Shown here: piece by piece, positions 47,623 to 63,616 of the stretch
Numbering within the stretch: the stretch's first letter is position 1
Layout: every line of letters starts with the position of its first letter
DNA from: Kiritimatiellia bacterium
Lineage (GTDB): Bacteria; Verrucomicrobiota; Kiritimatiellia; RFP12; JBMNHG01
Assembly (NCBI GenBank): GCA_050950285.1
Contig: JBMNHG010000003.1
Coordinates: 428,337 to 492,336 of the forward strand
Direction of reading: 5' to 3'
Length of the DNA stretch: 64,000 nucleotides
Made by a program: the position numbers and the translations under genes
Notes under the pieces: model-generated
Told to the model about the DNA's origin: nothing
What the model saw: the letters and a program-made list of their open reading frames with translations, nothing else
Database searches by the model: none

Positions 47623-50600
47623 TCAGTTGCCAAGGCGGATCCTCGGCACGTCGGCGAATCCCGGAGTCGCCTTGAGGCGCGGCGGGAGTTCGGCCGAGGC
47701 CGAGCCGGCCCGGGTGTTGAAGCGGTAGGTTCCGGGGCGCGGGAAATCGAACCATGCGCGGCCGTCACGGTCGGCGCGGACGCCCGTGCGCTCGCCGGAG
47801 GCGGAGATGGACCAGACGTCCGTGCCGGGAGCGGCGCCCTCGACGACCGCCTCGGCGGCGCCGCCCTCCCGCAACGCGGGCTGCGGGCGCAAGGTGTCGC
47901 GGTAGGCGTCGTTCACGGCGTTGCGGACATGCGAGGGATGGTCGGGGTCGAACCAGTTGATCATGTCGCAGCCGTATTGGTCGTTGTCGGTTCGCACGTG
48001 CAGGGGCTTCTCGCCGCGGCCCGAGAGCGAGGGCCAGGCCACGGCGCTCCAGCGGTGCTCTTTGAGCTCGGAGCGTTTGTAGCCCCACGGGTTGCCGAGA
48101 CCGGTCTCGTCGGCCTGGATGAAGCCGTCGAGTCCGAGGCCCATCGTGATGAAGCCGGGCACGCTCTCGTCGATGTAAACCGGGATCACGGCACGGACGA
48201 TGCGCGCCTTCTTCTCGACCTGTTCGGGCACGGCGCCGATGAAGTTGTCCCACGCGCCGTAGCTGCAGTAAAGCGTCTCGCCGAAGAGCGCCGGACGCCA
48301 GGCGTAGAGTTCGGGCCAGTTGCGGACAAGCTGCGCGACGTCGAAATCCGGGTAGTGGTAGTTGGCGGTATCGCACGGCGGCTCCTCGAACCACCGCGCG
48401 GAGGGGCTGTGCGTGCCGACGTCGCCGTCGCGCGTGAGGACGCGCGTCGGATCGAGCGATTTCACGAACTTCTCGTAGAGCGCGCCGATGCGGTCGTTGC
48501 GAACGTTGAACTCGGCCTTGTCGGCGGTGTCCCACGCCTGCGTGAGGATCTCGTTGTCGGTCGAGAGCACGACGACGGACGGGTGGTTGCGGATCCGCAA
48601 GTGCCAACGCCGGTAGTTGGCGAGGTTCCATGCGTGCGCGGCAGTGCCTTCCCACTGCTCGAAGGGGAGGAAATTCTCCTCGTAGGGCGTTGTCTCGGTC
48701 GCGTCGTGGATGCGCGGATACATCTGCGCGTAGACGAGCATGCCCATGCGGTCGGCGTCTTCAAGCGACTTGGCGTCGACGTTGGGCGACGAGATGCGGA
48801 CGATGTTGATGCCGTCGGCGCGGATGAGCGGCCAATAGATCTCGCGAAAGCGCGACTGCATGTCCAAGCGGTCCTGCCCGGTCGTGTCGCCCTGCAGGTG
48901 GATGTGGCGTCCGTTGAGGAAGAAATCGGTCTGGAATATCCAGAACTCGCGGAATCCGAAGCTTTCGCGGTGGCGGTCGACGAGGCGCCCGTCCGCGTAA
49001 AGGTCGGTCACCAGTTCGTAGAGATCCGGGCTGCCGTATGCGCCGCCGATGCCCCAGACCTTCGGGTCGGCCCAGCCGGAGGCGGTGCGGAGTGTCGCGG
49101 CGGAGCCGGGCGCGAGCGTCGCGCGCACGGGCGGGAGCCGGAGCCGGACGCGGTCGCCGGCCTCCACAACGGAGGCGCGGACTTCGACTTCGACGGCGGA
49201 CGGGGCGGCGTTCGTGAGGTCGATCTCGGCGTCGAGCGCCGCGCGCCGCCAGCTTGGACGCGCCCACACGCCGGCGACACGAACGCCCGAGGGCACGTAG
49301 TCGATGTAAACGCTTCCGCGCAACCCCTCGCACGAGTGCTCGCCCCAGTCCTGACGCGACCACTCGACCTCCAGTTCGTTGGCGCCGTCCACGAGGCCGG
49401 CGGCGAGCGGGACGCGCACCTCGCCGCAGATGCCGTCGTAGGCGCCGCAGACGGTGCCGTTCACGCGAACGACGGCGCGGCCGACAATGCCCTCGGAGAC
49501 GAACTCCGCCGTGCCGCGTCCATCCCAGTCGAACCGGGTGCGGTAGAAGGCGCGCGGCTCGGTGATGCAGGCATGGAACGACGTCTCGCCGTAGGCGGGG
49601 TCTGGAAACTTCGCGCTGTGCGGGTCGCCGGGGACGGACGCCTTCGCAGGCACATGCCAGCCGACGAAATAAGGAGAGCTCTGGATTCCCGGCACGGATG
49701 CGGGATGCCACGTGGCGCGGTCCTTCGAGACCTCCCAGACGCCGTTGAGGCAGAGTCTCGAACGGAGCGGAGCCGGAGGGACCGCGAGCGGCTCGTCCAG
49801 CGACCGCGGCGCGGCGGCGACCGCCGCCGCGCGCTCACGCGCATAGATCGCCTCGCGAGCCGCATAGGCTGCGGCGCGCGCGGCCTTGGCGTCTTCGCGC
49901 TGTTGCGCGAGCGCGGCAACACGCGCCTCCAGCGCGGGGATCGTCGCATTGCGCAACGTTCCGATTTCCCGCGCGAGCGCGACGTTCTCCTCCCGCAACG
50001 CGTCGATCGGACGCGGCGGATGCAGCCGCGCGCCGAGCGCGGCGATCGCCTCGTCGCCCGGATCGGCGGAAACGGCGAGTCCGGGCACGGGCGCGCCGTC
50101 CTTGTCCAGAAGCTGCACGCAGAAGCCGCCGCCGCCGCGCCGGTTGCCGATCTTGACGAGCAACACGTTGAGGCCTTCGGCGAGGCGCGCGTCGTACAGG
50201 AAGTTCCCCGGGATGACACCCTGCGACGAGAACCGCTCGCCAATCACGCGGCCGTTGAGAAACACCCGGTTGTCGTCGTCGGAACCGACGGCGACCACGA
50301 CGTCGCATGCCTTGGGCGCGTCAATGTAGCAACAGGCGTAGGCGACGAACCATTCCTCGACCGGCGTGAAAAATCCGTCGAAATAGATCACGCCGTTCGC
50401 GAACGCATGGGGCTTCCAGGCGACGTCGATTTCACGCGTCTCCTTCCAGCCCCATTCGTTCACCGCGCCGACGCCGGCGATGAGTTTGGCCTTGTCCGCG
50501 ACGAACGTGGCGCGAGTGGCCTGCCCCGGTCGCGGCAACGCATCGCTTTCGCCGCCGAACGGCACAAGCAGGTCCGCGCGGATGCCCTTGCCCGTGCCGT

Positions 50601-50757
50601 CCTCCTGCTGCTCGTTCGGGAACGGCCCGGCGACAAGCCAGTCGAGAAGGAACCCCTTGTCGTCCGGCGCCCCCGCCGGCAGCGCTCCCGATTCCGTTGG
50701 GAAGAACGCGAACGGCAGGGGAAGGATCCAGGGAAGCAGGAAAGACGCGTTTCTCAT
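47623..50757 (-). CDS. Secreted GH2-family glycoside hydrolase with N-terminal PA14-like domain and leucine-zipper linker
   Basis: WLVAGPFPN...GSDD...LNG...GLNVLLVK domain, then LNGVW, W...PDLY, FGFREF...FFLNG, ADRMGMLV and RNHPSVV..STDNE. Confidence 0.85.
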   Translation of the reverse strand: MRNASFLLPWILPLPFAFFPTESGALPAGAPDDKGFLLDWLVAGPFPNEQQEDGTGKGIRADLLVPFGGESDALPRPGQATRATFVADKAKLIAGVGAVNEWGWKETREIDVAWKPHAFANGVIYFDGFFTPVEEWFVAYACCYIDAPKACDVVVAVGSDDDNRVFLNGRVIGERFSSQGVIPGNFLYDARLAEGLNVLLVKIGNRRGGGGFCVQLLDKDGAPVPGLAVSADPGDEAIAALGARLHPPRPIDALREENVALAREIGTLRNATIPALEARVAALAQQREDAKAARAAAYAAREAIYARERAAAVAAAPRSLDEPLAVPPAPLRSRLCLNGVWEVSKDRATWHPASVPGIQSSPYFVGWHVPAKASVPGDPHSAKFPDPAYGETSFHACITEPRAFYRTRFDWDGRGTAEFVSEGIVGRAVVRVNGTVCGAYDGICGEVRVPLAAGLVDGANELEVEWSRQDWGEHSCEGLRGSVYIDYVPSGVRVAGVWARPSWRRAALDAEIDLTNAAPSAVEVEVRASVVEAGDRVRLRLPPVRATLAPGSAATLRTASGWADPKVWGIGGAYGSPDLYELVTDLYADGRLVDRHRESFGFREFWIFQTDFFLNGRHIHLQGDTTGQDRLDMQSRFREIYWPLIRADGINIVRISSPNVDAKSLEDADRMGMLVYAQMYPRIHDATETTPYEENFLPFEQWEGTAAHAWNLANYRRWHLRIRNHPSVVVLSTDNEILTQAWDTADKAEFNVRNDRIGALYEKFVKSLDPTRVLTRDGDVGTHSPSARWFEEPPCDTANYHYPDFDVAQLVRNWPELYAWRPALFGETLYCSYGAWDNFIGAVPEQVEKKARIVRAVIPVYIDESVPGFITMGLGLDGFIQADETGLGNPWGYKRSELKEHRWSAVAWPSLSGRGEKPLHVRTDNDQYGCDMINWFDPDHPSHVRNAVNDAYRDTLRPQPALREGGAAEAVVEGAAPGTDVWSISASGERTGVRADRDGRAWFDFPRPGTYRFNTRAGSASAELPPRLKATPGFADVPRIRLGN

Positions 50758-51408: not shown

Positions 51409-53106
51409 TCACTTCATGTAGTCCTCGGAGACGACGCGACCGAGGAGGTAGTATTTGGCGCTCCCCGGATACCAGAGGACGCCTTCGTCGCCGAGCATCG
51501 TGTAGCTCGTGTAGTAGGAGTTCCAGTGCGTGTTGGGCTCGACGAGTTTTGGCGTGCCGTCGAACGCAACAGGCTGATGCGCGCCGGGCACGTAGCGTCC
51601 GGGCACGAGGTAGAGCGGGCCGCGGTGGTCGGTGACCTCCAGGTGGAAGAGGCCGAAATAGAGGCCGCTCGCGGCCTCGGGCCCCTTCCAGTCGTAGCAT
51701 GGGCAGGGGGAGACGGAATGCGCGATCGCGGAACCTCCGTCGCGAACGAGGAGCGGTTCGGTCTTCGACCACGTGCGCCCGTCGTCCGCGCTCGCGCTCC
51801 AGACGGGCGAACCGCCCGACGCGCGCATCACCGCGAAAAGGCGCCCGTCGGGGAGCTTCATGAGCGAGGGCTCCTCGCAGATCGCCTTGCCCTCGGCGTC
51901 GGGCTCCACGCGAAGCATGTCGTCGCCCACGGCGTAACGCGAGATGCGGATGTCGCGCACGGGCGGATCGTCGTCGATGTTCTCGTATTCCCAGATCTCG
52001 CATCCGCCGGCGCGAGAGGAGCCGACAAGGAACCGGCCGTCCCTGCCGAGGCGCAGCGGGCGCTGCCAGTTGCACCACCAGCGGGTGCCGGCCTCGCCGC
52101 GCGCGATCTCCCCCGGGGTGCGCAAGTCGATCGGAACCTTCTCCGGCTCGCTCCATGTCAGGCCGCCATCGTCGCTGTAGATGCCGGCCATCGACTTGTC
52201 GGCCGGGCTCCACAGGCAGTAGAGGCGGCCGCTTCTCGAGAGCATCGGCTGCTGCCACGAGGCCGTGTCGACGCGCTCGGCGCGGTTGGTCGTCATCGAA
52301 CCGGCGAGCGCGCGCGGCTCGCTCCAGGTGAGGCCGCCGTCGACGGAGCGCGAATAGGCGGTGTGGTGGTCCGCGGCCGTCTCCAGCGTCGCCTGCGTCC
52401 AGAACGCATGGAAGACGCCGCGGGGGTCGTCGCGGATCACCTGGAAGTGGTCGTTGTAGGTGTCGTGCGCCCCGGCTTTCACCTGCTCCCAGCGGCGTTC
52501 GGGGCGCTTGGGGATGTAGACCGCGAAGTCGGGCTTCGTGGAGAGGATGCCGCTCACGACGTCGGGCGGATAGGACGCGCGGAGGCGCTCGGCAAGCGCG
52601 CGGTTTCGCGCGGTCGGGCGCTGGACGGGGAGGTTCGAGCCGTCGAAGCCGAAGATCACGGCCCACTTGCCGAACGCGAATGTCTCGCCGGCCTCGACTT
52701 CCTTGCGCCAGACGGTCGCGACATCAACGAGGTTGCGACCCCACGCCTGGAAGGGCGCGACCGAATCGTCGCGGACGAACCCGGCCGCGCGCAGCGCCTT
52801 CTCCTGGGAGACGTTCGACGTGCGCTGCGCGGGCGACAGGACGAAGAGCGCGCCCGCCCGTTCGACCGTCGCCGCGGAGCCGTCGTGGAACGAGCCGCGC
52901 AGGAAGAGTTCGCCCTTGAGCGCGTCGGGGATCGAGCCGAGCGCGAAGGAGCGGTCGCGGAAGAGCAGCGCGCCGGGAGTGAGCTCGGCGGCGGCGAGCG
53001 GCCCGGGCGCGAGCATCGCGCGGGGCGTGTCCGCCGCGTCGGCGGGCGCGGCGATCAGGGCCGCCGCCAAAAACGGAATCGGGAAAAATGCGGGGAGTCT
53101 TTTCAT
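51409..53106 (-). CDS. Secreted sialidase-like BNR/Asp-box beta-propeller (GH33-like)
   Basis: Signal peptide, Asp boxes SVDGGLTWS, SDDGGLTWS and SADDGRTWS, and EEPSLMKLPDGRLF..MR. Confidence 0.8.
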   Translation of the reverse strand: MKRLPAFFPIPFLAAALIAAPADAADTPRAMLAPGPLAAAELTPGALLFRDRSFALGSIPDALKGELFLRGSFHDGSAATVERAGALFVLSPAQRTSNVSQEKALRAAGFVRDDSVAPFQAWGRNLVDVATVWRKEVEAGETFAFGKWAVIFGFDGSNLPVQRPTARNRALAERLRASYPPDVVSGILSTKPDFAVYIPKRPERRWEQVKAGAHDTYNDHFQVIRDDPRGVFHAFWTQATLETAADHHTAYSRSVDGGLTWSEPRALAGSMTTNRAERVDTASWQQPMLSRSGRLYCLWSPADKSMAGIYSDDGGLTWSEPEKVPIDLRTPGEIARGEAGTRWWCNWQRPLRLGRDGRFLVGSSRAGGCEIWEYENIDDDPPVRDIRISRYAVGDDMLRVEPDAEGKAICEEPSLMKLPDGRLFAVMRASGGSPVWSASADDGRTWSKTEPLLVRDGGSAIAHSVSPCPCYDWKGPEAASGLYFGLFHLEVTDHRGPLYLVPGRYVPGAHQPVAFDGTPKLVEPNTHWNSYYTSYTMLGDEGVLWYPGSAKYYLLGRVVSEDYMK

Positions 53107-53131
53107 GCGTGCAGGGTCCGTTCGCGTCGTC

Positions 53132-56100
53132 CTATCGTACGATGACAACCGTTGCGGGGGATGGGCGATAGAGAAGGCCTTCGGCGGCGAGCGCGCCGCG
53201 CGAGACGCGCCACTCGTCGATCGATCCAACGAAACCCGGGGCATCGGTGCCGGTCGCCGGGGCGCCGATCGCGAACGAGCCGAGCGCCCAGGCGCGGCCG
53301 GTCGGCGCGAGGCAATCCGCGACGGAGCCTGAGGGGCGACCGTTCACATAGAGCGTCCACGTGCCGGCGGAGGCGTCGCGGGCGAGCGCGATGTGCGTGC
53401 AGGCGTCGGCCCAGGGCGCGGGATCCGCCGTAAATGCGCCATCGGCGACAATGCCGCTCCAGGAAAAGGGCGACTTGGCGAAGATGCGCACGCAGGGCGC
53501 CTCGCCGGTGGCGTCGAGCAGGAGCCGCCAGCCCCCGAGGCGCGAATCGGACCAGGTTCCGAAGAGCGTGAGGGGAGCCGATCCCGTGGCGCCGTTCCAA
53601 AGAAGCCAGCCCTCGACTGTGAACGAGGTGCCGGGATCAAGGCGGTTGCCAAGGTATGGGGCGCGGAGTGCGCCCGCCGAGGCGAACGCGACCGACCCGT
53701 CGTTGCGCGCGGCGTCGCCGTCGAAACCGGCGGTGGCGTCGGCGTTGGGGACGCGCGCGACCAATGGGGCGGACGAGCCGGAGGCGACGCCCGATTCGTC
53801 AACGAGCGCGTAGCCCGATGTGACGGCGCTCGAAAGGCCGGCCGCGCCCGCGTCGTCGTCGAACTCCCAGTAGGCGAGCGTCGCCAACTCGGTCGATTCC
53901 GAGAGCACCGGCGCCTCGGGCGGGGCGCAGAGGAACTGCGAGGGTTCGAGGGCGGCGCGGCTGACGCGGATCGGCCCGAGGGCGCCCCAGAGCGCGTTGC
54001 CGCTCGGGCGGGAGCCGATGCCGATGCCGCTGAAGGTCGAGGCGCGGTAGGTCCTCTGCGTGAGCGCGCCCGCGAGCGCGCCGTCGAGGTAGAGCTCGGT
54101 GATGACGTCGAGGGACGACCCCTTTCGCCTGTGCGTGAGCGCGAGATGGTGCCAGGCGTCGGTGTCCGCGATGAGATCCGCCGTGCCTGGAAACAGGACG
54201 TCCATCGTGCCGGTCGTGTCGGCCGAGAGTCGGAAGCCTGCTTTGCGCGACGTAAGTGCGAAGGGGATGGAGCCTGCGCCGTCGTTGTTGTAGAGGTCGC
54301 CGTAGATCAGGATCTCCCAGTCGCGCATCGCGCTGGCGCGCTTCAGGTAGAACTCCACCGTCCACGGGTCGTAGCGGCTGCCGAGGAGGCTGCACACCGC
54401 GCGGTCGCCGGTCCAGAAGCCGCCGGTGGCGCCATTGCCGCCGCCCGTGCAGAGGATCGTGGAGCCGGTCGTGACCGCGCTGTCGCCGCGGAAAGCGGGC
54501 GTGGCGTCCGGGTTCGTCACCGTCGGCGCGTCCGAGGAGCCGGTGTTCGAGCAGTGGGCAAGCCTGGTGATGGAGTCGTCGGTGGAGAAGGCGTAGTTGC
54601 CGGTCTCCGACGCGCCGGAGAGGAAGAGGCGGTTCCGCACGCCGAGCGGCCAGTAGGCGAGCGCGGCCGCGGCGCTCCCGGACGAGGCGTTGAGGAACTG
54701 CGCCGGCGCGAGCGCGGAAGCGCATGCGCGCCAGCAGTCGAAGTGGCCGTAGACTTGATCTCCGGCGTCGCCCGTCGTGCCGGTGAATGCAGGATAGGAC
54801 GGATACTTGCCGCCGAAGACGGACGTGCCGGCAAGATAGGCGTTCGTGGCGGCGAGGCCGCCCGCAAGGAGCGGCGCGCGCGTGTTCGAGACCGAGCCGC
54901 AATGTTCCCCGTCCTTGTAGAGCGTCCACGCGCCGTTGCCGGCCGTGGCGTCGTAGACGAGCGCGAGGTGCATCCAGCCCGTCGCGCCGAGACCGAACGC
55001 GCCGCCGGGAAACGCGCCGTCGGCAAGGCCCTCGCCCGAGTCGTCGGCGGCCGCGATGCGGAACGAGCGCACGCCGTGCCCGCCGTTGGTGATGATGAGC
55101 GACCAGCCGTAGGCGGGGTCGCGCGTGGCGAAAAGCCGTCCGGACGCATTGCTCGCGGAGGCGGAGAATCCTTCCTCTTGCTCCGGGCGGTACCAGCCCT
55201 CGACCGTGAAGCTGGAAGCGGGCGTGAGCGCCGAGCCGAGCCCGGGCGCGACAAGCGCCGCGCCAGGAGTCTGGGCGGAAGCGCAGCCCGTCTTGGAGGA
55301 CGAGAGCGCGGCGGCGCCGTTGGGCGGCTGGCCGGTCGGAAGAGCCGTGTCGTCGGGTTCGGGAAGCATCGCGGAAACGAACCGGGACGAATTGAGGACG
55401 AACTTGCCCAAGTCTGCCGCGCCGACGTGGTCGGCGACGTCGAAGACGCCGTCCGCATGGCCCATCGTCCAGTAGGCGACCGTCGTCGAGGGCGGGTTGC
55501 GGCATGCGGCGCCGACGAGGCCGGAGCCCGGCGCGCCGCAGAGGAGGCTCGCCGGCCCGAGCGATGCGTCGGAGAGGCGCCAATAGTCCATCGCGCCACG
55601 GAAGGCCTTGCCGTCGCCGCGGCCGCCGAGCCGGAACGCGCCGGCCGCCGTCGGGAGGTTCGCGCCCGCGCCATAGCCTCCCGAAACGACGGTGCCGACG
55701 GCCACGCCATCGAGGTACATCGTGAACGAGCCGCCGAGGCGGCCGGCGAGCGCGATGTGGTGCCATGCGCCCGTGAACATTTCACTGAAGTCGGCCTCGG
55801 AGTAGGCCGCGAACTTCCGATCCATGTTCGAGAGCGAGTCGTAGAATTCAAACGAATAGAGGTAGTTGCCGCCGGCGTCCTTGGAATTGTGGCGGATCGA
55901 CCAGATCCACGTGCAGGACGGGCGGGGGACGCCGTCGCCGCCCGTCGCCGCCGCGACGTTGAAATAGGCGACCACCATCCATTCGCCGCGTTCGGGCGGG
56001 GTGTCGAGGCGGCACCAGCCCTCGAGGGTGAAGGCGTTGGTCTGCGCGAACACGCCGGTGAAGTCCGCGGACACGCCGGAGAAGTAGTAGCCGTACTCGG

Positions 56101-56404
56101 TCCCGGCGGCGGCGGGCGCCGTCTCGTTGGCGGAATCGAACATGCGGGCGGTGGCGTCCGGGTTGGGCGGAAGGCCCCAGCCGACGGTGGCCCTTTCGTA
56201 GGCGAGGTCGGCCTTGGTCGTGCATGGGGCGAGATCGAACACCGTGTCGATCTGCGAACGTCCGTCGAGCGCGCCCGCTTCGGCATTGTATTCCAATGGC
56301 CAGAGAGCAAGCGTTCGGGCAGCGGCGGGCGAGACGGTTGCGGCGGCGAGGCAAAGCGGGAGAAACCTCGAGAAACGTGCCATCCAGCGGAATTTCGGAA
56401 TCAT
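53132..56404 (-). CDS. Secreted protein with four tandem LamG-like domains and C-terminal PATVVIVR tail
   Basis: Four units starting TLALW/TVAYW/ALAYW/TLAYW, each with FTVEGW-type and W.H.AL motifs and ending G..D.WR.S..AL. Signal peptide present. Alternative start 56383. Confidence 0.85.
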   Translation of the reverse strand: MIPKFRWMARFSRFLPLCLAAATVSPAAARTLALWPLEYNAEAGALDGRSQIDTVFDLAPCTTKADLAYERATVGWGLPPNPDATARMFDSANETAPAAAGTEYGYYFSGVSADFTGVFAQTNAFTLEGWCRLDTPPERGEWMVVAYFNVAAATGGDGVPRPSCTWIWSIRHNSKDAGGNYLYSFEFYDSLSNMDRKFAAYSEADFSEMFTGAWHHIALAGRLGGSFTMYLDGVAVGTVVSGGYGAGANLPTAAGAFRLGGRGDGKAFRGAMDYWRLSDASLGPASLLCGAPGSGLVGAACRNPPSTTVAYWTMGHADGVFDVADHVGAADLGKFVLNSSRFVSAMLPEPDDTALPTGQPPNGAAALSSSKTGCASAQTPGAALVAPGLGSALTPASSFTVEGWYRPEQEEGFSASASNASGRLFATRDPAYGWSLIITNGGHGVRSFRIAAADDSGEGLADGAFPGGAFGLGATGWMHLALVYDATAGNGAWTLYKDGEHCGSVSNTRAPLLAGGLAATNAYLAGTSVFGGKYPSYPAFTGTTGDAGDQVYGHFDCWRACASALAPAQFLNASSGSAAAALAYWPLGVRNRLFLSGASETGNYAFSTDDSITRLAHCSNTGSSDAPTVTNPDATPAFRGDSAVTTGSTILCTGGGNGATGGFWTGDRAVCSLLGSRYDPWTVEFYLKRASAMRDWEILIYGDLYNNDGAGSIPFALTSRKAGFRLSADTTGTMDVLFPGTADLIADTDAWHHLALTHRRKGSSLDVITELYLDGALAGALTQRTYRASTFSGIGIGSRPSGNALWGALGPIRVSRAALEPSQFLCAPPEAPVLSESTELATLAYWEFDDDAGAAGLSSAVTSGYALVDESGVASGSSAPLVARVPNADATAGFDGDAARNDGSVAFASAGALRAPYLGNRLDPGTSFTVEGWLLWNGATGSAPLTLFGTWSDSRLGGWRLLLDATGEAPCVRIFAKSPFSWSGIVADGAFTADPAPWADACTHIALARDASAGTWTLYVNGRPSGSVADCLAPTGRAWALGSFAIGAPATGTDAPGFVGSIDEWRVSRGALAAEGLLYRPSPATVVIVR

Positions 56405-56487
56405 GGGGAACTCCTCGTTGTTTGTTTTCAGTGTTTCGGTGATCGTGTGGGCGAAGGCTCTCGTCTCGGGGATCGCCTTGAATCGTC

Positions 56488-56554
56488 ATTGTACCATGCA
56501 ACCCTTTGCCCTGTGGATGCGAACGCGCAAATTCCTTATTGCCTTTTCGCGCAA
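56488..56554 (-). promoter_or_regulatory. Extended -10 promoter with upstream TTGCGCG direct repeats (candidate AraC-type activator site)
   Basis: Minus strand TGGTACAAT at 56496-56488. TTGCGCG occurs twice with 24-bp period, overlapping the 3' end of the regulator gene. Confidence 0.45.
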
Positions 56555-57699
56555 CGACAGTCGCTGGGCGTGACGCCAAAGCGGCGGACGAAGACCCGGG
56601 TGAAATAAGCGGCGGAAACAAACCCGCATTCCGCTGCGATCCGTGCGATGGACTTCCGCGTGGCAAGCAGGGACGCGCGGGCGGCGGCGAGCTTCGCCTC
56701 GGTGATTGCCTTCGAGACGGTCGTGTCGGCGGCGGCGAAGAGATAGTTGACGGAACGGATCGACATGCCCAGCTCGGCAGCCACGTCGCCTACGCGGATG
56801 CCGTCTTTCGCGCGACGGTTGATGAAGTCCAGCGCCTGGACGTATCGCCAGTTCGTCTTTCCCGCCGGTTCGCGCGTCGAGGCGCGGCGCCTCACGTCAA
56901 GCGGCCCGAACCGCTCGATTGCCGGCGTCCGCACGTTTCCCTTCATGACGTGGTCGAGCAGCTTCGCCGCCTTGTACCCGCATGCCTGGAAATCAACCAG
57001 GATGGAAGACAGTTCGGGGGCGGCCGTCTCGCAGACGAGATCGTCGTCGTCCACGCCGAGAATGGCGACATCGTCCGGGACCTTCAACTCCAGGATCATG
57101 GCGGCGTCCGCGCAAATGCGCGCGAACTTGTCGTTCGCGGCGAAAATGGCGACCGGCTTCGGCAACGTCTCCAGCCAGGCTGCCGCCCGTTTCCGGGCGG
57201 CTTCCGGGGCTTCGGAGGCGGGTGGCGGCTCCCCCGCGAAACGGCCGCCCATTCGCGTGACGGCTTCCGCGAACGCCCGGCCGCGACGATCGCTCCAGTC
57301 GTCTTCTTCGTGAATGTGGCTGCCTTCCTGCGGAAAGAAGGCATATGCGGCGAAGCGGCGGGAGAAAAGCGTTTTCGCGGCAAGTCGGCCGATGGCGGCG
57401 TTGTCGTTCAGCACGCTCGGATATCGTTGCGACAGAGCCGGCGAGCAGTCGATAAGCACCAGCGGCTTGCGCTTTGCCCACGCTGGAAGTTCGACGAATT
57501 CCACAAGGTCGCCGATGACCAGGCCATCGCAGCCCCTGAGAAGCTCGCTCTGAGAAAGCGCTTGCGTATAGGCGCCGTGGTCGAAGACATCGACCCTCCA
57601 GCCGACCTTCCTCGCATATTCGAAAACGCCGCGAAGCTGGTCCTGATGCGACCGGCTCAGCACCGGCACCGCCGCGCAAACAATCTTCGCCCCGCTCAT
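56536..57699 (-). CDS. XylR-type regulator (periplasmic-binding-like domain + AraC HTH)
   Basis: GVFEYA...W, WLETLPKPVAIFAAND, VPDDVAILGVDDD, PELSSI and IAAECGF.S..YF.RVF...G.TP. Alternative start 57762. Confidence 0.9.
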   Translation of the reverse strand: MSGAKIVCAAVPVLSRSHQDQLRGVFEYARKVGWRVDVFDHGAYTQALSQSELLRGCDGLVIGDLVEFVELPAWAKRKPLVLIDCSPALSQRYPSVLNDNAAIGRLAAKTLFSRRFAAYAFFPQEGSHIHEEDDWSDRRGRAFAEAVTRMGGRFAGEPPPASEAPEAARKRAAAWLETLPKPVAIFAANDKFARICADAAMILELKVPDDVAILGVDDDDLVCETAAPELSSILVDFQACGYKAAKLLDHVMKGNVRTPAIERFGPLDVRRRASTREPAGKTNWRYVQALDFINRRAKDGIRVGDVAAELGMSIRSVNYLFAAADTTVSKAITEAKLAAARASLLATRKSIARIAAECGFVSAAYFTRVFVRRFGVTPSDCRCAKRQ

Positions 57700-57773
57700 T
57701 TCCGCCCTCTCGTTCTCGCTGGATGAAGCATTCGGCTTGTCATTCTGCCCCAGCTCAGTCATGGTGTCAATAT

Positions 57774-57838
57774 TTCGCATATCGACATACGATTGTTCGC
57801 GGAAAGCCATTTTTTTGCCATGGAGCGTGTGGTATAGT
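57774..57838 (+). promoter_or_regulatory. Direct repeat TTCGC-N7-CAT (22-bp period) plus extended -10 TGGTATAGT
   Basis: TTCGCATATCGACAT at 57774 and TTCGCGGAAAGCCAT at 57796, followed by TGGTATAGT at 57830-57838. Confidence 0.5.
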
Positions 57839-57897
57839 CGAGGCCGTGATACGAAGGTGTATCCCGCGACAATCCACAACGAAGAAGGGAGAATGCA

Positions 57898-60558
57898 ATG
57901 CTCACGTTGAATGCAACGACTCGGCACGGGCGGGGAAGCCGGACCGTCTGTCTTGGTGTGGCGGCCCTGATGGCGGCTGTCCAGATCGCGTTTCCGCGAA
58001 CGGTGTACGACGGCGGCAAGGCGCTCCGCCAGAATTGCGAGAGCGGCGGCTACGTCGGAACCGATGGCTCGGTCTATACCGCCGCCGACGGCGGGAAGTG
58101 GCAGTACCTTCGCGCCCAGGACAGTCTGGCGACCACGACGGCTGCGTTTGGCGGCCATTACGCAACGGGCGACTACGACGGCATCGGCGGCGCGGCTTCG
58201 CCGTACATTCGCGTGAACATGAGCGGCGCATCGATCCCCGTCAGCGGAGGCGAGCCGATCGAGCCGGACGAGCTCTACATCCATCCAGGCAACCCGACGG
58301 CGGGGAATTCGTTTGCCGTGCTTCGGTTCATCGTGCCGGAAGACGGCTGGTATTCGGCATTCCTGTCGGCGCACGACGTGAACAAACAGCCTCCCGACCA
58401 CAACGTCAACGCCACGTCCGGCGCCGACGTGTGCTTCCTGGCAAACGGAAAGCTGCAGGCGAAGGGCGTCGTCTCGCTGGAAGACTACGCAGGCGGCGAC
58501 GCAAGCCCGCATCTGACGCACCGTTTCGACTTCCAAATGCCCGTGCGCTGGATGGCGGCAGGCGAGACGCTCGATTTCGTGATCGGCCCGAACGGCGGGC
58601 ACAACAGCGATGCAACGGGCATGAAGGCGTTTGTCGTCCGGGAAGACGCGGGAGCCTTCTACGATTCCGGCATCGCCTTCACGAACAATCTCGGCACGGC
58701 CTACTCGAATCCGTACGGCACAATCAAGAACGGCACATGGAACTACATGCTTTCATCGGTTCCGTCCGGCGTGGACTTCGCGACGTGGGCGCCGACAAAC
58801 TTCAGCCTTTCGTCATCCTTGCTGCCGACCCAGGCGACGCGGGCGAGCGCCGGCAACGAGCGAGGCTTTGCGAACGCCGCGACAGGGGCGTCTCCGTATC
58901 TGCTGGTGAACGAGACCGACACGCAGGACGCGGCGTTTGTCGCCCCGTTGGAACTGCACACCCATCCGAATCCGACGACGGGCTGGACGACGCTTCGTTT
59001 CCGTCCGCCTGTGAGCGGCTGGTATTCGGGGACGGTCGTCGTACGCGATGTCAGCAAGGGCACGGGCGGTGCGAATGGCGTCAGAGTCCATTTGAACATC
59101 GCCGATCAGGTCGTCACGAACGCCTACATTTCCGCCGAGCAGTTCTCCTCGACGGCGTTTCTTGCATTCGAGGCCCGGCTGTTGGCGACCGGCGAGCCGA
59201 TCGACATCATCGTTTCGCCTTGCGGCCAAATCAGCAGCGATGCGACAACCCTGTCCGCCATTTTCCGCCGCGAGGCAGGGGAGGTGTATGATGCGTCGAC
59301 GGCGTTTTCGGCGCAATGGTCGAGCGGCGGCACGGCGCACCCGTTCGCCGATGTGATCGGCGATGGCGCGACGTGGGATGTGGGCTACAAGGCGAACGCG
59401 CAAACGGTCCTGTTCACGACGATGCCCGCGAGCCTGTCGCTTTCCGGCACGGAGCTGGGCTGGTGCGTCTACGCCTTCGGCACGTCGCAGGCGAACGGCG
59501 ATCTGCCGCGCATCGCCCTCGCGACAAACGGCATTGCATCGGCGGACAGCGCATACTACCTGACGGGCAGCGCGCTCCTGGGCACGATTCCCAACGAACT
59601 GTGGGCCCACCCCGGCGCCCCCGGCGCCCCGAATGCAAGCCCGGTGGTGCGGGCGAACGTCCCGGCCGACGGCGTCTATCGCGTACGAGGCCACGCCCGG
59701 GATCTCAGCATCGGCAACGGCGGCAACAACGACGGCATACGCTTCAGCATTGCCGCGGACGGCTACGTCGCCGCATCGGCATGCGTCTCGCGCGACCCGA
59801 TTCGCTACAGCGGCAGTTCGGCCGAGGCTTCGATCGAATGCGACCGCCTTTGGCTGAAGGCGGGGGAAAGCTGGGACGCCGTTGTCGATCCCGTGGCAAA
59901 CTTCAACAATGACGGCACCGGCCTCGGCGTGTGCTACATCAAAGAGGGCGAGGCGGCGCCGAGCGTCGTGAACGTCGATTTTTCCGACACGGGCGCAGGC
60001 GCGTTCTCCGCATACCGGGGGCGCGGGCGCGAGGGCTGGAGCGACTGGACGAGGTGGAACACGGTTCGCCCGGACGGCACCGCCGTCGCACGGCAGGAGT
60101 ACTGCACCGAGGCCGACGGCGCCACGCGCCGCAACATGACCCTGACGCTCGCGCGCAACTCCAGTGCGCCAATCGCCAAAGGCAGCGCCGACGTTGGCGT
60201 TGGCTCCGTGCTTCTCGACAACTGGATCGTGTCGTCCGACGCGGGCGATGTCCACACCTTTACGATCGGCAAGCTCAAGAAGAGCGAGCCGTACACGCTC
60301 TGGCTCTACAGCTCGAAGGATGGCGCCGGCGGCAACGCCACATTCTCAGTGGGCGGCAAGACGAAGGGCGTGGAGGAAACGTGGTCGCTCGGCGCGACGG
60401 CGATGGCGACGCGCTTTGCGGTGGTGTCCGATGCAGACGGCACGATCACGGGCACGTTTGCAGCGGCGGATGGAACAGGCGGCGCCTTCAACGGCTTGAC
60501 GCTCGTTGGCGGATTGCCCGATTATTGCGCCCCGGCCTTTCTGTTGATTGTGAAGTGA
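57898..60558 (+). CDS. Secreted protein with three tandem ~200-aa beta domains, a fourth domain and C-terminal PAFLLIVK tail
   Basis: Repeats YD...EL(Y/H/W).HP...LRF..P..G.Y...GE..D....P.....D(A/G)T three times. GGGAG RBS and a hydrophobic N-terminal stretch. Confidence 0.82.
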   Translation: MLTLNATTRHGRGSRTVCLGVAALMAAVQIAFPRTVYDGGKALRQNCESGGYVGTDGSVYTAADGGKWQYLRAQDSLATTTAAFGGHYATGDYDGIGGAASPYIRVNMSGASIPVSGGEPIEPDELYIHPGNPTAGNSFAVLRFIVPEDGWYSAFLSAHDVNKQPPDHNVNATSGADVCFLANGKLQAKGVVSLEDYAGGDASPHLTHRFDFQMPVRWMAAGETLDFVIGPNGGHNSDATGMKAFVVREDAGAFYDSGIAFTNNLGTAYSNPYGTIKNGTWNYMLSSVPSGVDFATWAPTNFSLSSSLLPTQATRASAGNERGFANAATGASPYLLVNETDTQDAAFVAPLELHTHPNPTTGWTTLRFRPPVSGWYSGTVVVRDVSKGTGGANGVRVHLNIADQVVTNAYISAEQFSSTAFLAFEARLLATGEPIDIIVSPCGQISSDATTLSAIFRREAGEVYDASTAFSAQWSSGGTAHPFADVIGDGATWDVGYKANAQTVLFTTMPASLSLSGTELGWCVYAFGTSQANGDLPRIALATNGIASADSAYYLTGSALLGTIPNELWAHPGAPGAPNASPVVRANVPADGVYRVRGHARDLSIGNGGNNDGIRFSIAADGYVAASACVSRDPIRYSGSSAEASIECDRLWLKAGESWDAVVDPVANFNNDGTGLGVCYIKEGEAAPSVVNVDFSDTGAGAFSAYRGRGREGWSDWTRWNTVRPDGTAVARQEYCTEADGATRRNMTLTLARNSSAPIAKGSADVGVGSVLLDNWIVSSDAGDVHTFTIGKLKKSEPYTLWLYSSKDGAGGNATFSVGGKTKGVEETWSLGATAMATRFAVVSDADGTITGTFAAADGTGGAFNGLTLVGGLPDYCAPAFLLIVK

Positions 60559-60559
60559 C

Positions 60560-63500
60560 ATGAAACCCTCGATCGAGTGTACGACAAACAAGGAACCAAC
60601 CACCTACCGGACGGGTGAGACAATGGTGTTTACGCTGTCTTCGCGCGGCGGGCGTTTCGTTCGCTGGGAGCGGACGGGCGACGACGGCCGGACTGAAAAC
60701 GGCGAGGTGGAAGCCGACGCCCCGATCATCGTGAAGACATCGCTCGACCGTCCCGGTTTCGTACGGCTCGTGGCGCAGCTCGTGGACGGAGCGGGCAAGG
60801 AGGTGGCGCGGTTCGAAGGCGGCGCAGGTGCGGACGTAGGCAAGATTCGCCAGGATCATCCCGAGCCGGAAGACTTCGATGCCTTCTGGGAATGCCACAA
60901 GGCGAAGCTCGCGGAGGTGTCCATGGGCGGCGCCGCCTGCCGCGAGGTGCCGAGCGGACGTGCCGATGTGGCGCTGTACGAATTGTCGATACCCTGCGCG
61001 GGCCCTCGTCCTGCAACGGGGCTCCTGTCGGTTCCAACCAGGCCCGGAAGCCATCCAGCCCGAGTGCGCTTCTTTGGCTACGAGGAGAGCTGGCGGCCTG
61101 AAGCCCGCACGACGCCACGACCCGAGACGCTGTGCACGGACAGCCTCGTGCTCAGCCTCTCGGCCCATGGCTACGAGTTCAATCGGGAGGACGCCTACTA
61201 CAAGTCTCTTCGCGCGGCGAGCGGTTCGAACGGATACGATGTCGCATTCGATCCCGCGCAGAACGCAGACCCCTGGCAGTCGTACTTCTGCGGCATGGCC
61301 TATCGCGTGCTGCGTGGCATCGACTATCTGAAAAGCCGCCCCGAGTGGGATGGCAAGAGGCTCAGCGTCGAAGGAGGCAGCCAAGGAGGGTTGCAGTCCA
61401 TCTGGGCCGCGGCCCTTGATCCCGACGTCACGGACTGCCACTTGTTTTCCCCGTGGTGCTGCAATATCGGAGGGCCTGCGGCCGGGCGCGTTCACGACGA
61501 CTGGCACATCCCATGGGCGCCGGGGCTTGGCTACTACGATGGTGTGAACATGGCGCGACGAATTCCAACGACGTGTCGGATGACGGTGGCGTTGGCGGGC
61601 CTGGGCGACTACATTTGCCCGCCCTCCGGCGTGGCGGCGTTCTACAACAACCTGGCCTGTCCCAGGCAGATCACGTGGGTACAAGGCGCCACGCACGTTT
61701 CCATGCCACCTGCGGCGCAAGCATTCAAATACGCGGACGAAGCGCCAGGCGCAACGCCGCGACCGGCGTTTTCGTTCCGCTATGGCGGACGCGTTGTGAC
61801 CGGGAATGCATCCATGCAGGTGGACGATCGCCTGAAGGTGACGCTGGAGTCCGCCGGCCATCCGGAATACAACGCCACCGAATGGGTGCTGTGGTTCGAG
61901 AATCCCTCTTCCGAGAAGAGCGCCGTGTTGAGCGACATCCGCGATGGCGATTTCCTGGTGTCGCTGCCGCCTGCGCCGAAGAAGTTCCTCGGCGACATCG
62001 CCGTGCCCGGCGACCGCGCGGTCGTTTCGATGAATGGATGCGTTTCGGGGATCGACTACGCGACGAGCGACGCGGTCTCCGCCCGCGAGTTCGCAGCGTC
62101 CACGCATTATTTCCATCCGCTGCGCGACAAGGTGCATGAGATCGGGAACGACAGCGCCCGCTCGTCCGAGAACCAGGCCCCCTTTTTCGAGGTGACGCAG
62201 GATGGGCAAGGCGCGATCGTCGCCATTGGCTGGTCGGGCGGCTGGCGTGTCCGGTTCGAGGATGGCGACGAAGGCGTGCGCGTTGCCGCGGGGATGGCGC
62301 ATGCGCGGTTCTACCTGGAGCCCGGGGAGAAGCTGCGCACAAGCCGCATCCTCGTGATGAACTACGGACCGGGCGAGGACGCCGGGAACAAGTTCCGCCG
62401 CCTCCTGCGCAATCGCTTTTCCCACGTCGCGTCGCGTCCCGGGGTCCGGGAAGGCGTGTTCGCCTACGAGCTTTGGGGCGGAATCACCTCCGACGAGATG
62501 ATCCACCGCATCAAGACGCTGAAGGAAAAGGGACTTGCCTACGAAGATTTGTGGATTGACGCCGGCTGGTACGGGAACAGCAAGAAGTGCGACGACGCCT
62601 ACACCGGCGACTGGGGCGACTGGACCGGCGACTGGTTCCCGAACGCCCGCATCCATCCGGACGGCCTCGAAAACGTCCGCGATGCGGCGAAGGACGCCGG
62701 CATGGGAATCATGCTCTGGTTCGAGCCGGAGCATGTGGTGGACTCCACCCGGTTCGCCCGGGAGCATCCGGATCTTCTGGCGGGCCCGCTTCTGCATTAC
62801 GGCAACGAACGCGCGCGGGAGATCGTGCGCGACATGCTGGCGGACTACGCGGAACGGCTTGAATTTTCATGCTACCGCCAGGACTTCAACTTCGATCCTG
62901 CGGATGCCTTGAAAGCGCACGACGCCAAGGATCGCGAGGGAATCTCGGAAATCCGCCACATCACCGGCTTGTACCGTCTGTGGGACGAGCTTCTCGCTCG
63001 CTTTCCGAAGATGCTCATCGACAACTGCGCCAGCGGCGGCCGCCGCATCGACATCGAGACCTTGCGCAGGTCGGTCCCGTTCTTCCGCAGCGACTACCAG
63101 TGCGGCTTCAACATCAACGCCGACGTGCTCCAGGCCCACAACGCCGGGATTTCCCGGCTTCTCCCCTACAATGGCTGCACGGTGAAGCTGAGCGACGTCT
63201 ATTCGTTGCGCAGCGCCTATTCCTCCAGCCACGGGGTGGCTTATTGGAACACCGCGTTTCAGAAGGAGGAAGCCGTGGATTGGCCTGCGGCCAAGAAGTG
63301 CTGCGACGAATATCGCAGAATCCGCAAGTACTTCCCCTGCGACTTCTACAACCATGGCAGCGCCGGGATGGATCCCGCGGCGTGGGCGATCTGGCAGTAC
63401 CACGACCCCGAGCTGAACGAGGGCGTGGTGCTCGCGTTTCGCCGGGCGGCATCGCCGTCCAACCAGGCCGGCATGACGCTCAAGGGACTTCCGGAAGGCG

Positions 63501-63616
63501 CGTCGGTGGAAGTGGAGAACCTCGACTCCGGGGCGATCGCAAGGACGACCGGGGCCCTGGAGATCCTGCTTCCCGAACGCCGCTCATCGACCGTGCTGCT
63601 CTACCGTGCCACGTGA
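60560..63616 (+). CDS. Fusion of CE7-like acetylxylan esterase and GH36 alpha-galactosidase
   Basis: PEDFDAFW, GIDYLKSRPEWDGK, GGSQGG and GLGDYICPP in the N-half. IDAGWY, LWFEPE, YRQDFN, NCASGGRR and RSD in the C-half. Confidence 0.88.
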   Translation: MKPSIECTTNKEPTTYRTGETMVFTLSSRGGRFVRWERTGDDGRTENGEVEADAPIIVKTSLDRPGFVRLVAQLVDGAGKEVARFEGGAGADVGKIRQDHPEPEDFDAFWECHKAKLAEVSMGGAACREVPSGRADVALYELSIPCAGPRPATGLLSVPTRPGSHPARVRFFGYEESWRPEARTTPRPETLCTDSLVLSLSAHGYEFNREDAYYKSLRAASGSNGYDVAFDPAQNADPWQSYFCGMAYRVLRGIDYLKSRPEWDGKRLSVEGGSQGGLQSIWAAALDPDVTDCHLFSPWCCNIGGPAAGRVHDDWHIPWAPGLGYYDGVNMARRIPTTCRMTVALAGLGDYICPPSGVAAFYNNLACPRQITWVQGATHVSMPPAAQAFKYADEAPGATPRPAFSFRYGGRVVTGNASMQVDDRLKVTLESAGHPEYNATEWVLWFENPSSEKSAVLSDIRDGDFLVSLPPAPKKFLGDIAVPGDRAVVSMNGCVSGIDYATSDAVSAREFAASTHYFHPLRDKVHEIGNDSARSSENQAPFFEVTQDGQGAIVAIGWSGGWRVRFEDGDEGVRVAAGMAHARFYLEPGEKLRTSRILVMNYGPGEDAGNKFRRLLRNRFSHVASRPGVREGVFAYELWGGITSDEMIHRIKTLKEKGLAYEDLWIDAGWYGNSKKCDDAYTGDWGDWTGDWFPNARIHPDGLENVRDAAKDAGMGIMLWFEPEHVVDSTRFAREHPDLLAGPLLHYGNERAREIVRDMLADYAERLEFSCYRQDFNFDPADALKAHDAKDREGISEIRHITGLYRLWDELLARFPKMLIDNCASGGRRIDIETLRRSVPFFRSDYQCGFNINADVLQAHNAGISRLLPYNGCTVKLSDVYSLRSAYSSSHGVAYWNTAFQKEEAVDWPAAKKCCDEYRRIRKYFPCDFYNHGSAGMDPAAWAIWQYHDPELNEGVVLAFRRAASPSNQAGMTLKGLPEGASVEVENLDSGAIARTTGALEILLPERRSSTVLLYRAT

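Follow-up and report, generated by a model that had tools for sequence, protein, structure and literature searches.

A short C-terminal tag on large exported proteins of some Kiritimatiellia is a candidate surface-sorting signal

Signals that sort bacterial proteins from their C-termini come in several well-described forms. The PEP-CTERM/exosortase signal (PF07589, TIGR02595) is about 25 residues long, is found on Sec-exported and often huge, repeat-rich surface proteins of diderm bacteria, those of the Planctomycetes-Verrucomicrobia-Chlamydiae group included, and consists of a small proline-containing signature (the PEP motif), a hydrophobic run forming a membrane-spanning helix and a basic cluster at the end; exosortase substrates are thought to need the membrane span. 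LPXTG/sortase and GlyGly-CTERM/rhombosortase signals likewise place a signature, a hydrophobic stretch and a basic end at the extreme C-terminus. The C-terminal domains of the type IX secretion system (T9SS; types A and B) direct crossing of the outer membrane and attachment to the surface after Sec export, are carried by large adhesins, lectins and hydrolases, and are folded units of 70-100 residues that end in a hydrophobic strand and a basic residue. The beta-signal of the barrel assembly machinery (BAM) is a short, strictly C-terminal strand with the general form of a glycine followed by hydrophobic residues at +3 and +5 up to the C-terminus. To our knowledge, the known C-terminal sorting signals all need a membrane helix or a folded domain. 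Here we describe a tag of seven to nine residues at the ends of two exported proteins, P0001 and P0002, encoded in a 64,000-nucleotide stretch of DNA (the window; G000:C3:428337-492336) from an uncultured Kiritimatiellia bacterium whose genome, G000, comprises 4.05 Mb in 12 contigs, has a G+C content of about 66% and is 99% complete. The tag occupies the place of the known sorting signals, yet is too short for any of their mechanisms.

P0001 and P0002 are the products of the first genes of two divergent operons. P0001, of 1090 residues, is encoded on the reverse strand (53132-56404 of the window), leads the leftward operon and ends ...YRPSPATVVIVR in translation; it matches Pfam Laminin_G_3 (LamG) in four stretches (E = 6.2e-43), the last of which spans residues 921-1075. 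P0002, of 886 residues, is encoded on the forward strand (57898-60558), leads the rightward operon and ends ...DYCAPAFLLIVK; it appears to be built of tandem jelly-roll domains resembling carbohydrate-binding modules (CBMs) and has no family match in Pfam or NCBIfam. An initial annotation of the window had proposed that these two lead proteins are unrelated in sequence, carry signal peptides, share a short tail and flank a XylR regulator, and each of these readings was borne out. BLASTP revealed no kinship between the two (best E = 3.4). Their last residues are PATVVIVR in P0001 (53135-53158, reverse strand, stop at 53132-53134) and PAFLLIVK in P0002 (60532-60555, forward strand, stop at 60556-60558). 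The gene between the operons (56536-57750, reverse strand) encodes a XylR-type regulator with a sensor like periplasmic binding proteins and an AraC-type helix-turn-helix domain (Pfam scores: Peripla_BP_3, 8.6e-25; HTH_18, 2.4e-18; HTH_AraC, 4.8e-14). A Sec signal peptide is predicted at about residues 1-29 of P0001 (56318-56404, reverse strand); our crude signal-peptide heuristic missed it, and it was read from the sequence together with homologues, in which a signal peptide is followed by an identical mature start, ...T(V/L)ALWP. In P0002 the predicted signal peptide covers about residues 1-33 (57898-57996, forward strand), as judged from model confidence and from homologues that share the mature start RTVYD(G/A)GK; the cleavage sites in both proteins are likewise predictions.

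Both tails represent diverged versions of a single short tag that recurs throughout G000. We counted it in a gene set obtained by a home-made codon-log-odds call (2400 genes, 84% of the bases), and all genome-wide counts are approximate because this call is rough. The regular expression put forward beforehand for an enrichment check matched 79 of the 2400 protein ends, as against 3.6 expected from its internal frequency and a mean of 3.9 (maximum 9) when the last 30 residues were shuffled 200 times. A strict form, consisting of Gly-Thr, four hydrophobic residues and a terminal Arg or Lys, was found at 54 ends, where internal frequency predicts 0.03 and 200 shuffles gave a mean of 0.035 and a maximum of 1. 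A looser six-residue form closes 86 of the 2400 predicted proteins, which we refer to as the carriers. Counting back from the end, their final residue is Arg (80) or Lys (6), positions -5 to -2 are hydrophobic (L, I, V, F, M), position -6 is mostly Thr (64; Ala 7) and position -7 mostly Gly (67; Ala 9), and Pro is enriched at -9 to -11 (26 at -9). The consensus is (P)-x-[G/A]-[T/F/M], four hydrophobic residues, [R/K] and a stop, with P0001 (A-T) and P0002 (A-F) as minority variants. It had been supposed from these two proteins that the shared unit reads PA ... IV, and this wording has to be replaced: what is conserved is [G/A]-[T/F/M], four hydrophobic residues, [R/K] and the stop, with the proline often two to three residues ahead. 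The accompanying remark that the tail is shorter than a transmembrane helix and lacks a terminal aromatic holds across the set, with four to five hydrophobic residues and Arg or Lys last in 86 of 86. A stop-centred scan of open reading frames (ORFs) of at least 60 residues found 112 that end in the loose form; 87 of these look coding, and of those 87 only two lie outside the gene set.

The tag is strictly terminal. When the strict form was back-translated into a DNA pattern and searched in G000, it occurred 47 times before a TRR stop-type codon and zero to one time before each of six other codon classes. Elsewhere in the proteins of the gene set, the strict motif turned up 12 times among 1.13 million positions, in each case 59 or more residues from the C-terminus and never in the stretch 1-58 residues before it. 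We also considered read-through into a hidden membrane helix and rejected it: in the first 40 of the 86 carriers, for which 30 in-frame downstream codons were read, no hydrophobic or basic extension follows the stop (for all 86, the distance to the next stop was only tallied). Carriers use TAG 48 times, TGA 23 times and TAA 15 times, as compared with TGA 1249, TAG 746 and TAA 319 in other genes, so that TGA is underused (23/86 vs 1249/2314, p = 7.5e-7). This avoidance suggests that the exact end of the protein matters, although it is not general, TGA being common in some tag-rich relatives.

The proteins that bear the tag are predominantly exported, large and diverse. Using the heuristic mentioned above, which is home-made and allows alternative starts, we found signal-peptide-like N-termini in 72 of the 86 carriers and in 705 of 2314 other proteins (Fisher p = 1.7e-23), which argues against the tag being equally common in cytoplasmic proteins. 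The association persists among proteins of at least 500 residues (59/69 carriers vs 252/661 others) and among strict carriers (48/54). Put another way, 59 of the 311 signal-peptide-like proteins of at least 500 residues, or about a fifth, bear the tag. Median length is 918 residues in carriers and 358 in other proteins. With the tag removed, the last 300 residues of the 86 carriers fall into 50 BLAST clusters, mostly singletons, and 26 carriers belong to one beta-helix C-terminal family (...DLGCYE). Pfam domains in the last 700 residues of 20 carriers include Beta_helix, DUF1565, Gly_rich_2 (one match ending at position 689 of 700), PATR, F5/8 type C, PKD, Big_9 and FG-GAP. NCBIfam recognises choice-of-anchor Q, whose match stops some 10 residues short of the C-terminus, and the repeat associated with type V secretion (T5SS) and PEP-CTERM; both are presumably named for their position upstream of sorting signals. 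In many carriers outside the beta-helix family, a strand-like segment and a Pro/Gly turn precede the tag. From their sequences, the carriers appear to comprise roughly eighty Sec-exported, mostly very large and non-catalytic proteins of lectin, beta-helix and adhesin-repeat types.

Homologues keep the tail. P0002 has 227 homologues at E <= 1e-5, the named sources of which are 'Kiritimatiellae bacterium', and its tail was tallied in 119 of them among the matches listed (44-55% identity, its own record left out). The terminal Arg or Lys is kept in 117 of the 119 (one ends in Phe and one in Trp), position -7 is Gly in 76 and Ala in 32 (108/119 in all), and position -6 is Thr in 41, Phe in 34 and Met in 26. 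The spacing is constant, with five residues before the end, and Gly-Thr (29) and Ala-Phe (24) both occur within this set, so the two forms are interchangeable inside one homologous family. P0001 has six homologues of the same architecture at 33-36% identity, five of which end in a hydrophobic run plus Arg or Lys and one in Gln. Taking these homologues as presumed orthologues, retention of the tail at 33-55% identity while its hydrophobic residues vary supports purifying selection.

The initial annotation had allowed that the tail might simply be the last strand of a folded domain. An AlphaFold2 model of P0002 (72-row alignment, mean pLDDT confidence score 90.1) places the last strand at residues 866-870 (LTLVG) and assigns no secondary structure to 871-886; mean pLDDT falls to 56 in the block 881-886 and lies below 50 in residues 1-31. 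The tag is therefore predicted to lie outside the fold of P0002, and its occurrence in about 50 unrelated contexts also argues against a domain's last strand. The LamG match of P0001, a protein of 1090 residues, stops at residue 1075, and the tag begins about eight residues later, at 1083. Foldseek matched the body of P0002 to reelin repeats, CBM51 and malectin-like ectodomains, with TM-scores that are low because the model is multidomain, and an Atlas search with P0002 returned only unnamed Verrucomicrobiota and Kiritimatiellota clusters.

Across genomes the distribution of the tag is patchy. We scanned 201 Kiritimatiellia genomes with the strict DNA pattern, for which a reversed-pattern control sums to <= 3; since the pattern misses the A-F, M and K variants, a count of zero means that the strict form was not found. 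At least four hits were obtained in 17 of the 201 genomes and at least six in ten (G000 47, G085 30, G058 29, G159 21, G074 14, G164 8, G112 8, G095 7, G001 6, G089 6). The strict pattern was found in 0 of 10 genomes of family f2, which belongs to the same order as G000. When 201 genomes, each at least 90% complete, were sampled across the phylum, the 134 outside the class gave 0-3 strict hits, which is the control level; G331, with 31 hits, and G334, a single-contig genome of the same order with 9, joined the tag-rich set. Families f4, f5, f38, f39 and f43 are among the tag-rich ones, and f2, f12, f20, f21, f33 and f41 among the tag-free ones. The suggestion that the tag is lineage-specific is thus upheld among the genomes sampled, in that it is abundant only in some Kiritimatiellia lineages. 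In G058, from a different family and of lower G+C content, every one of the 16 hits sampled lies at the end of an ORF (153 to at least 799 residues), and these ORFs carry Beta_helix, PKD, PATR, Chlam_PMP, LamG and F5/8-C domains. A G058 carrier was the only one to show Chlam_PMP repeats, which were not seen on the G000 carriers examined. The same tag thus recurs in another family with different codon usage.

Four tag-free genomes show what can stand in the tag's position. They hold the choice-of-anchor Q motif in seven loci, and in the five where the stop is readable no tag follows it; there, 99-280 further residues come after the motif, often ending ...F(F/Y)R(V/I)xV.... We noted, in tag-free Kiritimatiellia (G016, G107), a C-terminal domain of about 100 residues after choice-of-anchor Q that ends ...F(F/Y)R(V/I)xVxL(P). 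The same domain closes four proteins of G000 (C1:47107-48387, C2:178015-180849, C3:56004-58127 and C8:458424-464945) and may be a second sorting domain of the class.

How, then, does the tag compare with the described systems? Sorting models run on the last 45 residues of carriers gave no match at E <= 10 (NCBIfam on 12 tails, Pfam on 11), so that no described model claims it, and the Pfam model PF07589 does find five other G000 proteins. The likeness to PEP-CTERM is nevertheless considerable, in the order of proline-containing signature, hydrophobic run and basic end, in the kind of protein and in the passenger modules; the tag differs in being only 7-9 residues long, as against about 25, in having a single basic residue where PEP-CTERM has a cluster, and in lacking both the PEP motif and a membrane-spanning helix. 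Classical PEP-CTERM tails coexist with it in G000 on other, smaller proteins, and exosortase, which is nearly universal in the class, was not seen to co-vary with it. Compared with T9SS domains, which share its type of cargo, the tag is a strand-sized peptide that would lie outside the fold and follows unrelated domains. It resembles the BAM beta-signal in being a short hydrophobic strand-like motif at the very C-terminus with a glycine a few residues upstream, but it ends in Arg (80/86) or Lys (6/86) and not in an aromatic residue, its hydrophobic residues are contiguous and not alternating, and its carriers look like soluble multidomain beta-helix, lectin and jelly-roll proteins, not barrels. 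The tails contain no LPXTG motif and no membrane anchor, their hydrophobic stretch being far below the length of the anchors of LPXTG and GlyGly-CTERM proteins. GlyGly-CTERM and MYXO-CTERM signal models did not match the tails, which have no membrane helix (the enzymes themselves were not searched for). Although carriers have PATR repeats, G000 has no PF03797 translocator barrel of the autotransporter (T5SS) kind. A search at the level of titles and abstracts found no description of such a tag; the type species, Kiritimatiella glycovorans, is reported to be a diderm that possesses the Sec and Tat pathways and type II secretion, in a paper (PMC5148204) that uses none of the terms C-terminal, PEP-CTERM and exosortase.

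We looked for genes that could serve the tag. Exosortase (PF09721) is present in 178 of the 201 class genomes, including all 10 of the tag-free family f2, and in 0 of 18 genomes of family f16, and the fused EpsH-EpsI exosortase of G000 has an orthologue in 29 of 29 genomes, tag-rich and tag-free alike. Most tag-rich genomes have a single copy of Omp85, so that an extra paralogue of that barrel does not track the tag. Secretin copy number ranges from 2 to 13 across all 29 genomes tested (6 in G000) without tracking the tag, and the secretin directly upstream of the carrier at C3:420357-423455 has no orthologue (E <= 1e-40) in any of the five tag-rich f4 genomes and has one in many tag-free genomes. 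The operon containing this secretin spans the window edge: it includes a 2005-residue exported protein that is cut by the window start (window 1-3967, reverse strand) and continues, in G000:C3:420357-428336, with a 173-residue protein, the secretin (C3:423637-425646) and the tag carrier, which is of PATR type. As possible readers of C-termini, PDZ domains are represented in G000 by only two PDZ_2 proteins. Neither sortase (PF04203) nor the autotransporter barrel (PF03797) was matched in G000, with controls positive in three genomes for each, and the T9SS core components PF14349 (SprA_N), NF033710 (PorV) and PF11751 (PorP/SprF) were also not found there, in searches two of which (of three) matched no control genome. 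Recurrent neighbours of carriers are RHS proteins, giants with an FlgD_ig domain and NHL repeats, XylR-type regulators, GH2-like enzymes and FGE-sulfatase proteins, none of which resembles a sorting machine. The FlgD_ig/NHL giants are about 23 exported proteins of 692-1751 residues, with the FlgD_ig domain at the N-terminus; most share a conserved C-terminal ...P.LWG.F.F, and 10 directly adjoin a tag carrier.

Taken together, the enrichment, strict position and conservation described above support a tag that is genuine, under selection, found only at the very C-terminus and carried by exported proteins of surface type, and the idea of such a tag is supported in that it survives all four refutations named beforehand, namely lack of enrichment, equal frequency in cytoplasmic proteins, identity with the last strand of a domain and a match to an already described model. 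We favor the possibility, to which we would give a probability of roughly 60%, that the tag is recognised by a hypothetical envelope component for outer-membrane crossing or retention. Under this model a carrier would be exported by Sec and then fold, leaving its last 6-9 residues exposed; the envelope component would read the tag together with the free C-terminus, probably by added beta-strand pairing, and would either move the carrier across the outer membrane or hold it there. A bolder form of the model, which we regard as possible but somewhat short of even odds, is that some Kiritimatiellia possess a new kind of sorting pathway defined by a seven-residue signal with a free C-terminal arginine and by a receptor or enzyme of the outer membrane or periplasm, and serving about a fifth of their large exported proteins.

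Several observations weigh against a sorting role. No machinery for the tag was recognised in our searches of G000, five candidates fail to track it across genomes, and no small membrane or barrel gene recurs beside carriers in G000. The gene calls and signal-peptide calls are heuristic, and one AlphaFold2 model is the sole structural support. Part of the carrier count is paralogy, because 26 of the 86 share one beta-helix end, and recombination helps to spread tails, because some neighbouring genes end identically. Finally, some of the 86 loose matches, about ten in all, appear fortuitous; they include two polytopic membrane proteins, a sugar-kinase-like protein and a six-member cluster of small proteins.

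Paralogy and recombination lead directly to the alternative that the tail has no function and was spread by duplication and 3'-end gene conversion in expanded paralogous families. The size of the beta-helix family, the identical last residues in neighbouring genes and a second tail-coding remnant just past one stop are what such a process would leave behind; however, about 45 further unrelated C-terminal contexts, the survival of the tail in homologues at 33-55% identity while its hydrophobic residues vary, its recurrence in another family with different codons and the fact that it is never displaced from the exact C-terminus leave this alternative, already disfavoured, highly improbable. A structural or stabilising element, pairing strands into a surface layer or oligomers, or capping the protein to control its degradation by proteases that read C-termini, is more probable but still unlikely. 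A hydrophobic strand with an exposed end could make strand-swap contacts, many non-beta-helix carriers have the strand-like segment and turn just before it, and TGA avoidance, if it means that the exact end counts, fits such an element as well as it fits sorting. On the other hand, the tail takes exactly the place that sorting domains hold in relatives, behind choice-of-anchor and PEP-CTERM-associated modules; it occurs on exported proteins only and is unstructured in the one confident model (P0002).

The remaining alternatives would assign the tag to machinery that is already described. It might mimic the beta-signal of barrels and dock by strand pairing on BamA or another general barrel, with no dedicated apparatus, an idea that we consider about as unlikely as a structural element. 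BamA is present in every genome tested, no gene for a dedicated machine was found, and glycine followed by hydrophobic residues to the C-terminus fits the general form of the beta-signal; the invariable Arg or Lys at the end (86/86, never aromatic), the contiguous hydrophobic residues and the soluble, multidomain nature of the carriers do not, and a universal receptor leaves the absence of the tag from most sampled Kiritimatiellia genomes unexplained. A predicted complex of BamA (residues 340-786) with P0002 (690-886) scored 0.00 against a mark of 0.32, which is evidence neither way. Marginally less probable in our judgement is a drastically shortened PEP-CTERM signal, cleaved by exosortase near P-x-G-T so that the protein is passed to the surface or to exopolysaccharide. 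Its appeal is that the tag is laid out as a miniature of the three-part signals, that G000 encodes a pair of exosortases together with at least five proteins of the classical PEP-CTERM kind, and that one carrier type holds the T5SS/PEP-CTERM-associated repeat. Yet four to five hydrophobic residues cannot span a membrane, PEP-CTERM models fail to match at E <= 10, and the classical tails of G000 differ in look and sit on small proteins. The distribution of the enzymes speaks against it as well: exosortase, near-universal in the class, is present in tag-free f2 (10/10) and absent from f16 (0/18), some genomes of which have 2-3 pattern hits, and the orthologue of the G000 enzyme in all 29 genomes does not discriminate tag-rich from tag-free.

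If the tag is indeed a sorting signal, there would be a new family of sorting enzyme or translocon to discover, and no bacterial signal for surface sorting known so far would be as short. Behind each of the earlier C-terminal signals (LPXTG, PEP-CTERM, GlyGly-CTERM and the T9SS domains) a new enzyme or secretion system came to light, and a strictly terminal tag of seven residues, carried by about eighty giant proteins of lectin and adhesin type, would represent a different solution, in poorly studied polysaccharide-degrading anaerobes. It would allow the surface proteome of tag-bearing bacteria to be predicted by a sequence rule, give a handle on the machinery through phylogenetic profiling or peptide pull-down and, possibly, supply a very small tag for surface display.

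A sorting role would also account for the layout of the locus, in which the regulator is flanked by two operons, each with a tagged putative glycan binder first and untagged enzymes behind. We envisage that P0001, with its four LamG modules, and P0002, with its tandem jelly-roll domains, are surface glycan binders of two polysaccharide-utilisation operons, and that the untagged hydrolases of both would act elsewhere. The claim that these hydrolases lack the tail stands, as five other gene ends in the operons all differ from it (...VVSEDYMK, ...VKVYEKSDP, ...VPRIRLGN, ...STVLLYRAT and ...AEILEMKFE). In the leftward gene run, P0001 is followed by a sialidase-like BNR/Asp-box protein (51409-53070, reverse strand; Pfam BNR_2, 2.3e-16), which ends ...VVSEDYMK, and by a glycoside hydrolase resembling family 2 (GH2; 47623-50757, reverse strand; Pfam Glyco_hydro_2 and Glyco_hydro_2_C), which ends ...VPRIRLGN. 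Downstream of P0002 lies a two-domain enzyme of acetyl-xylan-esterase and melibiase type (60560-63616, forward strand; Pfam AXE1, 7.1e-24; Melibiase, 2.8e-21), which ends ...STVLLYRAT. In G000 the XylR-type regulator belongs to a family of six, the members of which lie no more than three genes away from tag carriers. A search of genome contigs for related loci returned one locus, 95% identical. DNA nearly identical to window positions 53100-60600 occurs in 20 public DNA runs from 18 studies, labelled as bioreactor, anaerobic digester, biogas, wastewater or landfill metagenomes, with no RNA run listed; four of the 20 runs may be the source sample itself.

A few minor observations concern the ends of other G000 genes. 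In the six-member cluster of small proteins among the chance-looking matches, five (C2:213195-213830, C10:19313-19843, C8:805030-805560, C6:56027-56512 and C11:371991-372728) are 161-245 residues long, belong to no Pfam family and end tag-like, in ...GAVILLR, ...AAIFILR or ...HSILMIK. These five lie directly upstream of giants with RHS/YD repeats, the neighbour of the C4 copy not having been checked, and several copies are identical; small protein and RHS giant together may be a mobile toxin cassette with a tag-bearing helper. A G+C-rich palindrome, ...AAAACGGCGCGCCGCGAA..., recurs a few dozen bases past the stop of many carriers; it probably represents either a terminator hairpin common to these genes or a small repeat element. 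The second tail-coding remnant referred to above, ...YRPGTLFLLR, followed by a stop, lies in frame right after the TGA of C2:956034-960080 (G000:C2:960078-960160), left behind by duplication of a 3' end or by recombination between carriers.

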